NCBI RefSeq assembly: GCF_009931435.1
Contig: NZ_CP043414.1
Reading direction: 5' to 3' (one strand)
Length of the DNA stretch: 64,000 nucleotides
DNA from: Escherichia coli
Lineage (GTDB): Bacteria; Pseudomonadota; Gammaproteobacteria; Enterobacterales; Enterobacteriaceae
The notes beneath the pieces are model-generated. The model had not been told where the DNA came from, ran no database searches, and saw only the letters and a list, made by a program, of their open reading frames with translations. Below, in pieces: positions 5,032 through 18,067 of this stretch; within the stretch, counting starts at the first letter, position 1; each line of letters opens with the position of its first letter. A program made the position numbers and the translations under genes.

Positions 5032-5209
5032 TCTCTCCCCTTCCCCGGTCGTCTGACCGGGGAATACTCTTCCTCTCCAATATGCATCATCTTTTCCCAT
5101 AATATTAAACAAATAAACTCATTAAAAAAATGAGCGATTTTTGACAGTCGTAGAAAATGATAATGCAGAGAATATGCCTTTTCTTTCTTGTTAATTATAA
5201 GGATATTTT

Positions 5210-6502
5210 ATGCGCTATAATGGTTTAAATAATATGTTTTTCCCTCTTTGCCTGATTAACGATAACCACCCTGTCACAAGTCCATCACATACAAAGAAAA
5301 CAGAATCAGATAATTATAGCAAACATCATAAAGACACGTTAATTGACAATAAAGCCCTCTCTCTTTTCAAAATGGATGATCATGAAAAAGTGATAGGCTT
5401 GATTCAGAAAATGAAAAGAACTTATGATACTTTACCATCAGGAAAAATCACTAAAGAAACGGACAGGAAAATTCATAAATATTTTATAGATATAGCTTTA
5501 TACGCAAGTAATAAATATGACGATAGAATTACGAGAAGAGTTTACCTTAATAAAGATAAGGAAGTGTCAATTAAGGTAGTGTATTTTATAAATAATGTCA
5601 CTGTCCATAATAATACTATCGAAATCCCACAGACAGTAAATGGTGGTTACGATTTTTCACACCTTAGCCTGAAAGGTATCAGGATTAAAGATGAAGATTT
5701 ATCCAATTCGGATTTTGCAGGTTGCAGACTACAAAATGCTATTTTCCAGGGCTGTAATATGTATCAAACGAATTTTAATTTTGCCATAATGGAAAAAATA
5801 ATTTTTGATAATTGTATTCTCGATGACTCAAATTTCGCTCAGATAAAAATGACTGACGGAACTCTAAATGCATGCTCCGCTATGCATGTTGAATTCTTCA
5901 ATGCAACAATGATTAGAGCTAAAATTAAAAATACCTTCCTTGACTATTCAAATTTTTATATGGCGTACATGGCTGAGGTGAATCTTTATAAAGTAATAGC
6001 GCCATATGTTAATTTATTTAGAGCCGACCTTAGTTTCTCTAAACTCGATTTAATTAACTTTGAACATGCTAATCTTTCTCGCGTCAACCTGAACAAAGCA
6101 ACCCTCCAGAATATAAACTTAATTAATAGCAAACTCTTTTTTACGCGGCTGACAAATACGTTCCTCGAAATGGTTATATGTACCGATTCTAATATGGCTA
6201 ATGCTAATTTTAATAATGCCAATTTAAGCAATTGCCATTTCAACTGTTCTATTTTAACAAAAGCCTGGATGTTTAATACCCGTTTCTATCGGGTTAATTT
6301 CGATGAGGCTATCGTCCAGGGAATGGGCATATCCATTCTCCGTGGGGAGGATAATATTCCCATTAATAGTGATATCCTGATAACACTACAGCAACTCTTT
6401 GAAGAGGATTGTGCCACTCATACTGGCATGTCACAAACTGAGCATAATATTCAGGAAGTGTCTATGAATACCACTGAAGATACTATGCAATACGCAGATT
6501 GA
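5210..6502 (+). CDS. yjcF: Pentapeptide-repeat protein, 430 aa, AT-rich gene
   Basis: 430 aa; long run of pentapeptide-like repeats (…SNSDFAGCRLQNAIFQGCNMYQTNFNFAIMEKIIFDNCILDDSNFAQ…); position and size match K-12 yjcF; markedly lower GC than neighbours. Confidence 0.8.
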   Translation: MRYNGLNNMFFPLCLINDNHPVTSPSHTKKTESDNYSKHHKDTLIDNKALSLFKMDDHEKVIGLIQKMKRTYDTLPSGKITKETDRKIHKYFIDIALYASNKYDDRITRRVYLNKDKEVSIKVVYFINNVTVHNNTIEIPQTVNGGYDFSHLSLKGIRIKDEDLSNSDFAGCRLQNAIFQGCNMYQTNFNFAIMEKIIFDNCILDDSNFAQIKMTDGTLNACSAMHVEFFNATMIRAKIKNTFLDYSNFYMAYMAEVNLYKVIAPYVNLFRADLSFSKLDLINFEHANLSRVNLNKATLQNINLINSKLFFTRLTNTFLEMVICTDSNMANANFNNANLSNCHFNCSILTKAWMFNTRFYRVNFDEAIVQGMGISILRGEDNIPINSDILITLQQLFEEDCATHTGMSQTEHNIQEVSMNTTEDTMQYAD

Positions 6503-6592
6503 GATTAAGCCGAAGAATAGCCAATGAATTGACTTTAAAAGAGAGATACTCACGGACTTCTGACTTATTTATTTTAGAATCATGAATGTTAG

Positions 6593-6648
6593 CCCGAGGT
6601 AATCTGAAAAAGGTGCAAAAGATTGCACCTTTTTCAGATTACCTCGGG
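6593..6648. terminator. Perfect 26-bp stem hairpin between convergent yjcF and yjcE
   Basis: cccgaggtaatctgaaaaaggtgcaa / aaga loop / ttgcacctttttcagattacctcggg; arms exactly complementary. Confidence 0.6.
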
Positions 6649-6669
6649 CCTGGTTACGTCGCTTTCGGC

Positions 6670-8319
6670 TTACTGATTTTCCTCAATCAGCAATGCTTCA
6701 AGCAAATCGAGATCGTGCAGTAATTTTTGCAGCGTTTCATTGCTGATCTCCCGCGTGGCGCGCAGGTGGTACAGTTCAGCACGTTCAGAACGCAATGCCG
6801 CCAGACGGAAGCGACGCTCAAGGTTCTCTTCCTGCACGGAACTTTCAACGTCGTTACGTCCATCGGCGCGACGACGCAGGTTACCAATGACGCGAGAACT
6901 GACCTCCGTGAGCAGCTGGTTATCGATATTCTCTTCGGTATCCGCCGCCAGACGCTCCTCCATTTTCTGGATTGCCACAATCGCCACTTCTGCCGTTGCC
7001 GCTCGCGCAATACGCTCCTCTTTCAACTGCTGCGAATGGTCTGCGACTTCAATGTGTTGCAGCAGAATGGGCAACATCACCACGCCGACAAACAGCGAAA
7101 AGAGAATGACGCCAGCCGCCAGGAACACCAACTCATAGCGCGCCGGGAAGACGTTGCCATCCGGCAAGAGTAGCGGGATAGAGAGCACACCGGCTAGTGT
7201 GATCGCCCCACGCACCCCGGCAAAAGACGCAATCAGGATTTCTCGTGTGGTCCACGAACCAAACTCCATCGGCTTCTTCTTCAGGAAACGGTTGCTGAAC
7301 TTTTTCATCGTCCACAGCCAGCCAAAACGGACCAGCATCAGCGCCGCATAAATCAGAATGATATCGGTAAACAGCATCCAGATTTCGACGTTAGGGTCGA
7401 TTTCTGCCGCCATCAGCGACGTCTCCAGAATACCCGGCAGCTGCAGACCTAACAGCAGGAACACCATGCCGTTAAAGACAAATTCCAGCATCGCCCAGGT
7501 GCTGTTTGCGCGCAGGCGCATTGCCAGCGGCGCACGGCGCATCACACCGGAGCGGGTGATGGTCATCCCGGCGGCAACCGCAGCGAGGATGCCGGAAACG
7601 CCAATATGTTCGGCAATCAGATAAGAAGCGAATGGCAGCAAGAACAGCAGAACAATCTGCGTCGCGGGTTCATCACCGCCCCAGCGGCTGAGGAATCGCA
7701 GCGAACGACCATACAGCCAGCTCACCACAAAACCGGCGAGAATACCGCCTATTGCCACTTTCATAAATTCCACCGTTGCACCGCCGACGGTGAAGATCAT
7801 CGTCCCCATCGCCACTGCCACAGCAAACTTTAATGACACCAGGCCGGAGGCGTCATTCATCAACGCTTCGCCCTGCAAAATACCCATGATTTTTTTCGGG
7901 ATGCGCCCTTCGCCAACAATACCGGAAAGCGCCACAGCATCGGTCGGAGAAAGCACCGCCGCCAGCGCAAAGGCGGGAATCAGCGGAATGCCCGGCACCA
8001 CCCAGTAAATAAGGAAGCCAATGCCAACCACGGTGACCACCACCAGCGCCAGCGCGAGGCCGAAAATCTCCCGACCATGTTCGAGAAATTCACGGGTCGG
8101 CGTTTTCCAGCCATCTGCGAACAGCAACGGCGGGATAAACAAGACTAAAAAGAGTTCAGGATCAAACTCCACATGCAAACCAAACGTCGGCCACGCCAGT
8201 AGCGCACCGATGGCGATTTGCATAAGCGGAAGCGGGATCTGAAAGGGCATGACACGAGTGACCACCCCGGACAGCGAGACCACGAGGGTCATTATCAGTA
8301 TGGTGAAGAAGATTTCCAT
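6670..8319 (-). CDS. yjcE: Na+/H+ (cation/proton) exchanger, CPA1 family, 549 aa
   Basis: 549-aa polytopic membrane protein with hydrophilic C-terminal tail; synteny with K-12 yjcE. Confidence 0.9.
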   Translation of the reverse strand: MEIFFTILIMTLVVSLSGVVTRVMPFQIPLPLMQIAIGALLAWPTFGLHVEFDPELFLVLFIPPLLFADGWKTPTREFLEHGREIFGLALALVVVTVVGIGFLIYWVVPGIPLIPAFALAAVLSPTDAVALSGIVGEGRIPKKIMGILQGEALMNDASGLVSLKFAVAVAMGTMIFTVGGATVEFMKVAIGGILAGFVVSWLYGRSLRFLSRWGGDEPATQIVLLFLLPFASYLIAEHIGVSGILAAVAAGMTITRSGVMRRAPLAMRLRANSTWAMLEFVFNGMVFLLLGLQLPGILETSLMAAEIDPNVEIWMLFTDIILIYAALMLVRFGWLWTMKKFSNRFLKKKPMEFGSWTTREILIASFAGVRGAITLAGVLSIPLLLPDGNVFPARYELVFLAAGVILFSLFVGVVMLPILLQHIEVADHSQQLKEERIARAATAEVAIVAIQKMEERLAADTEENIDNQLLTEVSSRVIGNLRRRADGRNDVESSVQEENLERRFRLAALRSERAELYHLRATREISNETLQKLLHDLDLLEALLIEENQ

Positions 8320-16885: not shown

Positions 16886-17914
16886 ATGAGCCTGGAAAGC
16901 GAAGAAAAAGACCAAACAGAAAAAAAGCTGATCACCATGCGTGACGTGGCGAATGCTGCCGGGGTGAGTATTTCTACCGTTTCGCGTATCCTGGATGAAA
17001 GATTACCGCCATCTAAAAGCGCTTCTGCCGAAAAAGTACGCCAGGTCGCACGCGAATTGGGCTATCGTCGGGATTATGTTGCCTCCAGTCTCCGTCGCGG
17101 CGGCACCGGGACACTTGGTGTATTAGTTCCACGCCTGACTGATGCAGTTACTGCAATGTTGTTTGAAGAAATCGCTAAAGCAGCGTCGCATCGTGGTTAC
17201 TTCGCAGTGGTCGCGACTTGTGGAGACGATCCCCAGCAAGAGCGAGAATCTGTAGAATCACTTCTCGACAGGCGGGTCGACGGCTTGATTATGTCAACCT
17301 GTCGCCTCGGCGATCCCCTACCGCAAACTTTGCGTGAAAGGGATATTCCCCATGTGCTCGCCCTGCGTACTGATGGTGTTAGCCCATCATCCATCGGCGA
17401 TGATGAACTGGGTGGTTACCTTGCTACTCGCCATCTTATTGATTTAGGACATAAAAACATCGGTTTGATAGGTGGCCCGGATTTTGCCTCAAATGCGCTT
17501 AATCGCCGTAAAGGTTTTGAAAAGGCAATGCGCGAAGCCGGACTAACTATACAGCCGCAATGGTGCTGTTCATCAGACTTTAACATCCAGTCGGGAGAAG
17601 AAGCAGGGATGAAACTCCTCAGAACGACTCCTGCTCCAACCGCTATTTTTGCGGTAAATGACGAAATAGCGATTGGTGTGGTTGCTGCCGCTCACCATTT
17701 GGGGATAACAATCGGCCAAGAGTTGTCGTTAGTGGGTTATAACGACATTCCTCTGGTCAGCCGACTTCCTGTGGCGCTCACTTCCGTAAGAACGCCGCTA
17801 GAGCATATCGCCAGTAATGCTGTGGACATGTTGATTAATGCCGACAGTGGCCGCTCTTTGCGTACAACCATACCGACTTTAATACCAAGAAAATCAACGA
17901 GTTCACCCAAGTAA
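16886..17914 (+). CDS. Accessory island gene 3: LacI-family transcriptional regulator, about 325-342 aa
   Basis: N-terminal HTH (…ITMRDVANAAGVSISTVSRILDE…) followed by a periplasmic-binding-protein-like sugar-binding domain; alternative start at MRDVA (about 16937). Confidence 0.85.
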   Translation: MSLESEEKDQTEKKLITMRDVANAAGVSISTVSRILDERLPPSKSASAEKVRQVARELGYRRDYVASSLRRGGTGTLGVLVPRLTDAVTAMLFEEIAKAASHRGYFAVVATCGDDPQQERESVESLLDRRVDGLIMSTCRLGDPLPQTLRERDIPHVLALRTDGVSPSSIGDDELGGYLATRHLIDLGHKNIGLIGGPDFASNALNRRKGFEKAMREAGLTIQPQWCCSSDFNIQSGEEAGMKLLRTTPAPTAIFAVNDEIAIGVVAAAHHLGITIGQELSLVGYNDIPLVSRLPVALTSVRTPLEHIASNAVDMLINADSGRSLRTTIPTLIPRKSTSSPK

Positions 17915-17923
17915 AGCCTGTCT

Positions 17924-17962
17924 TTCATTTGCTGCAAAACCCGGGGTTTTGCAGCAAATGAA
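17924..17962. other. 39-bp near-perfect palindrome just downstream of the regulator gene
   Basis: ttcatttgctgcaaaaccc-g-gggttttgcagcaaatgaa (19-bp arms); no U-tract follows, so either an unusual terminator or a protein-binding site. Confidence 0.4.
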
Positions 17963-18067
17963 GAACATTAAAATTCTTATATTCCTTCCCTGATTTTGTG
18001 ATCCCTGCTGCATTTTTCAACAACTGTTGATTGACAACCTCATTCATCAGGTTCAAATTCAATCTTG

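Follow-up and report, generated by a model that had tools for sequence, protein, structure and literature searches.

What does a long, uninterrupted hairpin do between two convergent genes of E. coli, and does its perfection point to a function of its own? The element lies in the 64-kb window (the whole stretch of DNA that was analysed), between the genes for a pentapeptide-repeat protein (yjcF/espX5) and a Na+/H+ antiporter (yjcE), both named after the RefSeq annotation of their orthologues. A preliminary description had reported it as an exceptionally long, perfect 26-bp hairpin between convergent genes of contrasting GC content, and had interpreted it as a bidirectional terminator, a processing or stability element, or a remnant of the insertion that brought in yjcF. 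The hairpin is indeed real and perfect, its arms (GCCCGAGGTAATCTGAAAAAGGTGCAA on the left, TTGCACCTTTTTCAGATTACCTCGGGC on the right) being 100% complementary, but inverted-repeat analysis gave a stem of 27 bp. The convergent arrangement was confirmed (Table 1), as was the contrast in GC content, about 29–36% across yjcF versus 52–57% across yjcE. RNA folding yielded −49.1 kcal/mol for the + strand and −50.0 kcal/mol for the − strand (z = −14.8 and −15.8 respectively, with none of 200 shuffles equally stable), and folding as DNA −33.7 kcal/mol. No longer hairpin occurs within the 64-kb window, where the next in length are one with 24-nt arms (92% complementary) and one with a perfect stem of 13 bp.

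Table 1. Features of the yjcF–yjcE junction, in window coordinates.
Feature	Position	Strand	Remarks
yjcF/espX5, pentapeptide-repeat protein, 430-aa ORF	5210..6502	+	stop codon 89 nt upstream of hairpin
Orthologous position of K-12 SEnd-seq 3' end (4281712)	6587	−	5 nt past stem; placed by homology
Complete 58-nt palindromic hairpin	6592..6649	.	27-bp perfect stem, 4-nt loop
yjcF-proximal (left) arm	6592..6618	.	variable arm in E. coli
Left-arm outer 15-nt extension	6592..6606	.	pairs with 6635–6649; perfect only in window lineage
Orthologous position of K-12 PNPase-dependent 3' end (4281703)	6596	−	placed by homology
Invariant core, bidirectional intrinsic terminator shape	6607..6634	.	A5-GGTGCAA-AAGA-TTGCACC-T5
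Core A5	6607..6611		
Core stem GGTGCAA	6612..6618		
Loop	6619..6622	.	AAGA on + strand, UCUU on − strand
yjcE-proximal (right) arm	6623..6649	.	homologous to sequence 3' of yjcE in yjcF-less Escherichia, including E. albertii
Core stem TTGCACC	6623..6629		
Core T5	6630..6634		
Right-arm outer 15-nt extension	6635..6649	.	
yjcE, Na+/H+ antiporter, 549-aa ORF	6670..8319	−	stop codon 20 nt from hairpin

Two further observations concern the immediate surroundings. Between the yjcF stop codon and the hairpin, the window lineage has a 14-nt stretch (CTCACGGACTTCTG, 6549–6562) that is missing in K-12, O157 and the other E. coli checked. A mechanically called 45-aa ORF (6586–6723, +), likewise open in K-12, has a start codon (ATG) 6 nt ahead of the hairpin, spans the whole element and overlaps yjcE, to which most of it is antisense.

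The preliminary description had raised the prospect of a dispersed repeat, for which multiple identical copies would speak; the searches found instead one copy per genome. Either arm sequence has its sole site in the window at this hairpin (0 chance matches expected), and E. coli genomes searched with the K-12 query carry it at one place each, the apparent second places being only the palindrome matching its own reverse strand. A phage search gave no matches to the hairpin, and the 'plasmid' matches were confined to non-mobilizable records of 0.37–4.9 Mb, which we take to be chromosomal sequence. Single copies and the negative phage search led us to reject a dispersed repeat or mobile element (REP/BIME, MITE). 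In Rfam 15, searched at permissive thresholds, no family reached its gathering threshold; the best matches were to generic microRNA-precursor hairpin models (40.9 and 40.2 bits versus thresholds of 90 and 67) and were dismissed as generic hairpin noise. The RefSeq records among the matches listed have no feature annotated under the hairpin, which in the literature consulted is present only as rows of supplementary tables. In kind, then, the element is ordinary and falls within known categories, its perfection being an unusual local variant.

That the perfection is local became apparent from the alleles of other strains. The hairpin is carried by 4,118 of 5,426 complete E. coli genomes, but the perfect 27-pair form by only about 17–20 of the 5,426, strains 2013C-4282 and MFDS1022581 among them, so that the exceptionally long perfect stem reported earlier is confined to the window lineage, K-12 having 23 of 27 pairs (Table 2). 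About 4,050 genomes, K-12 among them, have 22–23 of the 27 pairs. Relative to the window, the left arm of K-12 has C at 6599, C at 6603 and TT at 6607–6608, and a right-arm A at 6637 occurs in about 700 E. coli genomes. In all, 4–5 mismatches are found in about 98% of hairpin-bearing E. coli genomes, with 2–3 of them in the outer 15-nt extension and the other two at 6607–6608 in the A-tract. The central 24 nt (AAAGGTGCAA-AAGA-TTGCACCTTT) are constant across all alleles except that of the single isolate L004. Since the stem varies outwardly from 22 to 27 pairs around a constant core, its outer part is not strongly constrained to be perfect, while the core, unchanged across about 4,100 E. coli genomes, is conserved.

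Table 2. Alleles of the hairpin in E. coli, with RNA folding energies for the + and − strands.
Allele	Distinguishing sequence	Pairs	dG (+/−), kcal/mol	Genomes
Window type		27/27	−49.1 / −50.0	17–20
L004, single isolate	6613 G>A, inner stem	26/27	−42.4 / −47.4	1 genome checked
L005 type	left arm GAGcTAAcCTGaa	25/27	−37.7 / −45.3	about 23
K-12 / O157 type	left arm GAGcTAAcCTGtt	23/27	−33.2 / −39.0	about 3,370
CAAATT type	K-12 left arm + right-arm 6637 G>A	22/27	−29.9 / −36.5	most of roughly 750 at 95–99% identity to K-12

The window lineage itself is divergent, with 93–97% identity to K-12 over the whole 3.8–9.4 kb comprising actP, yjcF, yjcE and ghxP. In a neighbour-joining tree of yjcE it falls in its own clade with MFDS1022581 and R32_14_1F, on a separate deep branch. 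It may thus represent a cryptic clade, with a divergence exceeding the usual level between E. coli strains. In one other genome (NZ_LR882973.1, 788–1500 of the extracted locus) an IS1 lies inside the hairpin, the left arm being lost and CAAAAGA plus the right arm remaining.

We then asked how the hairpin relates to yjcF. The actP–yjcE interval (5032–6669) is a variable locus with three states in E. coli. The first, in the 4,118 genomes mentioned above, comprises yjcF/espX5 and the hairpin. The second, in B2 strains (e.g. APEC O1) and E. whittamii, is a lrgB-lrgA-lysR cassette with an unrelated GC-rich hairpin; here the yjcE stop codon is the exact point at which homology to the window ends, and the window hairpin is wholly replaced. 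The third, in 264 E. coli genomes (IAI39, SMS-3-5, CE10 and others) and likewise in E. albertii, is a direct convergent actP/yjcE junction with a spacer of roughly 80 nt (82 nt) between the converging stop codons. The actP-proximal flank is common to the yjcF and cassette alleles and missing from the empty one. Core-homologous hairpins occur in the actP/yjcE spacer of IAI39-type E. coli (CGGTAAAAAGGTGCG-ATGTAC-TGCACCTTTTTACCG), E. albertii (AAAAGGTGCGA-TTTA-TCGCACCTTTTT), Escherichia sp. MOD1-EC7003 and strain SCPM-O-B-8794, the last an E. coli-labelled record from the YjcE scan that is without yjcF. The right arm of the window and its flank (TTGCACCTTTTTCAGATTACCTCGGGC...ACGTCGCTTTCGGC) align base for base with those of E. 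albertii (TCGCACCTTTTTCAGATTAAGTCGGGC...ACGTCGCTTTCGGC). Because core and right arm are found in genomes that lack yjcF, they are older than yjcF and not a scar of its insertion, and sequence comparison indicates that yjcF is inserted between a small hairpin of actP (5043–5062) and the core hairpin. The outer stem is absent from E. albertii; MOD1-EC7003, without yjcF, has a long quasipalindrome.

A search for the hairpin allowing up to 8 mismatches at 80 YjcE loci of a species-representative genome collection found none, the Escherichia homologues having been recognised by reading the region 3' of yjcE; Citrobacter and other genera have REP-like repeats or a LysR gene at that position instead. 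Like REP/BIME elements, the hairpin is an intergenic 3'-UTR palindrome able to stabilise the upstream mRNA, and in Citrobacter such repeats take the equivalent place, but it is single-copy per genome and unrelated in sequence. A peptide-pattern scan for YjcF in genomes representing 100,044 species returned no confirmed relatives, though most E. coli carry yjcF.

Some further details of the locus may be recorded here. The small actP-side hairpin is a perfect 8-bp stem-loop (CCCCGGTC-GTCT-GACCGGGG) 11 nt past the actP stop codon, and no T-run follows. The B2 cassette allele shares this stem-loop, whose counterpart in empty-junction genomes is GGTCACCTGACC. In the cassette alleles (3960–3975 of L002; 5180–5195 of L008) the sequence around the lysR stop codon is TAAGTCGGG in B2 and TAAGACGGG in E. 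whittamii, both of which resemble the outer right-arm sequence of E. albertii, TTAAGTCGGGC; the likeness could go back to an ancestral junction common to them, or be coincidental. A candidate target-site duplication for yjcF (CTGACC versus CCCGAGG) was discarded as too weak a match.

Comparison between lineages also revealed paired changes within the stem. They include A:T to G:C beside the loop and, beyond the A/T tracts, CTGT/ACAG versus CGGT/ACCG versus CTG/CAG; two more distinguish the outer helices of MOD1-EC7003 and E. coli. In a small alignment of eight sequences, 84% of cells pair, compared with 28–49% when the partners are slid by 1–3 columns, and four pairs have changed on both sides, a count that misses some outer pairs of two outgroups whose register is shifted by 1 nt. 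Such covariation need not reflect selection on RNA, as template switching between the arms of a quasipalindrome can mimic compensatory evolution; it therefore supports co-evolution of the arms more firmly than a selected RNA structure.

Template switching at quasipalindromes has been shown experimentally in E. coli and inferred comparatively (PMC7202029, PMC5941160, PMC8794818), and the alleles bear its mark. All four differences between the window and K-12 (6599, 6603, 6607 and 6608) lie on the left arm, and each restores pairing. K-12 and the 25-bp L005 type differ at 23 positions in about 3,080 nt, the sole tandem double among them, TT>AA, falling on the two mismatched T:T pairs. Quasipalindrome correction by template switching characteristically leaves changes that are clustered on one arm and complement the other. 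The simplest origin of the 25-bp type, which lies next to K-12, or nested among K-12-like sequences, in the yjcE tree, is from the K-12 type, and judging from these sequences the 25-bp form probably arose from the 23-bp one. For the step between 23 and 27 pairs, the window clade forms a separate deep branch and the outgroup states conflict; the perfect form could be ancestral, with the other alleles decayed from it. At 6607–6608, where the change completes a U-tract, selection may have acted as well. The locus thus resembles the known quasipalindrome hotspots (Ripley 1982; thyA, Lovett laboratory; Lavi et al. 2018) in its clustered one-arm changes complementing the other arm, but differs from them in that the variation is natural and affects a terminator instead of a reporter gene, and in that direction is established only for the 23-to-25 step.

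The conserved core has the features of a bidirectional terminator, as the preliminary description had suggested: the A5/T5 core is symmetric, and the orthologous actP/yjcE hairpins show compensatory changes. Its stem is 7 bp long with four G:C pairs and a 4-nt loop, on the weak side in free energy (−8.7 / −9.6 kcal/mol, or −13.9 / −14.8 kcal/mol with the A:U pairs included), and is followed by TTTTT on both window strands (6630–6634 on + and the complement of 6607–6611 on −). In K-12 only the yjcF side has UUUUU, and the yjcE side reads UUUAAC where the window has UUUUUC. Consensus terminator scans of the window, K-12 and E. albertii all passed over the site; on our reading, the maximal stem absorbs the A:T pairs and leaves no T-run after it.

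Published 3'-end data are available for the K-12 orthologue (NC_000913.3, 4281650–4281707), and there they support the further proposal of a processing or stability element. A re-analysis of SEnd-seq data of Ju et al., mapped to NC_000913.3, defines a ghxP–yjcE transcription unit spanning 4278307–4281712 (PMC10667835), whose 3' terminus falls 5 nt beyond the outermost base pair of the full hairpin rather than at the inner U-tract. The list 'PNPase ends in WT' includes a 3' end at 4281703, which lies within the stem, 4 nt from its base, and accounts for 14% of ends in the wild type versus 0 in the pnp mutant, with borderline statistics (log2FC 4.6, FDR 0.045; PMC10667835). Bicyclomycin-sensitive Rho termination regions were reported by Adams et al. 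at 4281854 (+, yjcE-sense) and 4281402 (−, yjcF-sense) (PMC7815308), that is, 147 and 248 nt beyond the hairpin respectively, although the signal at 4281854 could come partly from spurious antisense promoters inside yjcF. Their curated Term-seq list for K-12 has no 3' end at 42814xx–42817xx (PMC7815308). After the full stem, K-12 reads UAACAUUC on the yjcE side and CUGGUUAC on the yjcF side, without a U-run on either. Together, the 3' end, its PNPase dependence and the downstream Rho region fit a protective 3' stem-loop. Since the yjcE-side tract of K-12 is only UUUAAC, read-through by polymerase is plausible there; for the same reason K-12 3'-end mapping is not directly transferable to the window, whose UUUUUC should, from its sequence, make direct intrinsic termination more efficient than in K-12.

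Taking these lines together, we consider it likely that the convergent yjcF/espX5 and (ghxP–)yjcE mRNAs share this hairpin as their transcript-end element, perfected mainly by template switching. The core would be an old bidirectional Rho-independent terminator that served actP and yjcE before yjcF was inserted. RNA polymerase coming from either gene would stall at the U-tract during formation of the stem, after which release would follow, as we infer from the architecture of the core. Transcripts that read through would fold the full 27-bp stem, which would block 3'-to-5' exonucleases, and RNA terminated downstream by Rho would be trimmed to the hairpin base, a step seen in the imperfect K-12 orthologue and in the yjcE direction. 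The 15-bp outer extension would be a quasipalindrome perfected mainly by template switching between the arms rather than by acquisition of a new function, but the TT>AA change at 6607–6608 could be favoured, as it converts the yjcE-side U-tract from UUUAAC to UUUUUC. Of the three interpretations offered at the outset, the terminator is thus supported, as is the stability element in K-12, and the insertion remnant fails for the core and right arm. The AT-rich yjcF is probably little transcribed, and transcription collisions at the junction would then be rare.

Such an element has clear relatives among known systems. It shares with bidirectional intrinsic terminators a short G:C stem with a 4-nt loop, flanking A- and T-tracts, a location between converging stop codons and compensatory changes across Escherichia, but its helix in the window runs 15 pairs past the A/T tracts, about twice the usual stem length, and the mapped yjcE 3' end in K-12 comes after the whole helix and not at the U-tract. 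SEnd-seq identified bidirectional terminators with a hairpin in convergent gene pairs (Ju et al. 2019, as described in bioRxiv 10.1101/2022.10.23.513370), and, as far as that description goes, the likeness lies in a hairpin that separates convergent genes and is proposed to halt transcripts arriving from either direction. In the work of Dar & Sorek (2018), Rho-terminated mRNAs are trimmed by exonucleases to a protective stem-loop without a following U-run (PMC6061677). The K-12 orthologue matches this in having its 3' end just past the stem-loop, a PNPase-dependent end at the base and a Rho region ~150 nt downstream; the window hairpin differs in having a terminator core with both U-tracts complete, and may terminate directly, without Rho and trimming. 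Elsewhere in the window, the second long hairpin (17919–17967; 24-nt arms, 92% complementary, 1 nt between them) starts 5 nt past an ORF ending at 17914, has no T-run after it, and may be another protective 3' stem-loop.

Could the perfect stem nevertheless have a function that the mismatched alleles lack? RNase III needs roughly two helical turns (about 20 or more uninterrupted bp), a length exceeded by the 27 uninterrupted bp of the window and not reached in K-12, and the full stem might be a dedicated processing site for this enzyme, gained relative to K-12, at which read-through transcripts from either gene are cut and the antisense tail is destroyed; K-12 data agree with this in that transcription proceeds beyond the hairpin in both directions and Rho regions flank it. 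However, with 4–5 mismatches interrupting the helix in about 98% of hairpin-bearing E. coli, such a function would have to be new and limited to about 20 genomes, and the K-12 hairpin stays intact at the mature 3' end, which makes this reading quite unlikely. Somewhat broader is the proposal that in the window lineage the perfected palindrome turned a leaky, Rho-backed, PNPase-trimmed stem-loop into an efficient symmetric bidirectional terminator and/or a duplex cleavable by RNase III. We regard it as rather doubtful; if true, yjcE would be insulated from the AT-rich effector gene espX5, and the 22-, 23-, 25- and 27-bp alleles would amount to a natural series, with terminator strength adjusted by template-switch mutation.

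The perfection could also have been there from the start, were the outer left arm (GCCCGAGGTAATCTG in E. coli) a scar of the yjcF insertion, formed as an inverted duplication of the right arm by fold-back synthesis, born perfect and since decayed in most E. coli. This would explain a perfect stem without selection, and it agrees with the AT-rich insert stopping exactly at 6591 and the GC-rich outer arm starting at 6592, as well as with E. albertii, which has the right-arm sequence CAGATTAAGTCGGGC without a complementary left outer arm. But the yjcF-less MOD1-EC7003 has an extended quasipalindrome (CCTGACCAATCTGT... / ...ACAGGTTAAGTCAGG) whose left arm aligns with that of E. coli, the core and right arm predate yjcF, and the 25-bp variant, nested among K-12-like sequences, speaks of change towards perfection and not only of decay. 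The 9 nt at the outer end of the left arm may still be an insertion remnant; as the origin of the outer arm and its perfection, an insertion scar is unlikely. A role at the level of DNA, as a cruciform, a site for a dimeric protein or a hotspot of recombination or insertion at the edge of a variable segment, we judge very improbable. The three alternative contents of the actP–yjcE interval, the genome with IS1 in the hairpin and the stability of the DNA hairpin would be in keeping with it; against it, the B2 cassette replaces the hairpin and homology breaks at the yjcE stop codon, not in the hairpin, most genomes carry the mismatched version, reading of the window sequence revealed no direct repeats flanking the hairpin, and by inspection it has no likeness to dif, attC or known operators.

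A shared transcript-end element perfected by template switching, as favoured here, has modest practical value, and carries a caution that relatives be checked before a long perfect hairpin is called special. For the biology of E. coli it would provide a natural example of a bidirectional terminator that outlives the insertion of an adjacent gene and serves a new gene pair. Whether the same hairpin acts as an intrinsic terminator or shields Rho-terminated RNA from exonucleases would hinge on two U-tract bases, a switch between hairpin roles of the kind proposed by Dar & Sorek (2018; PMC6061677). Quasipalindrome correction would, moreover, give rise in natural populations to multi-base polymorphisms that can be mistaken for selection on RNA structure. 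The alleles with 22, 23, 25 and 27 pairs could be used to measure the effects of stem perfection and U-tract length on read-through, and could show what decides between intrinsic and Rho-dependent 3'-end formation.
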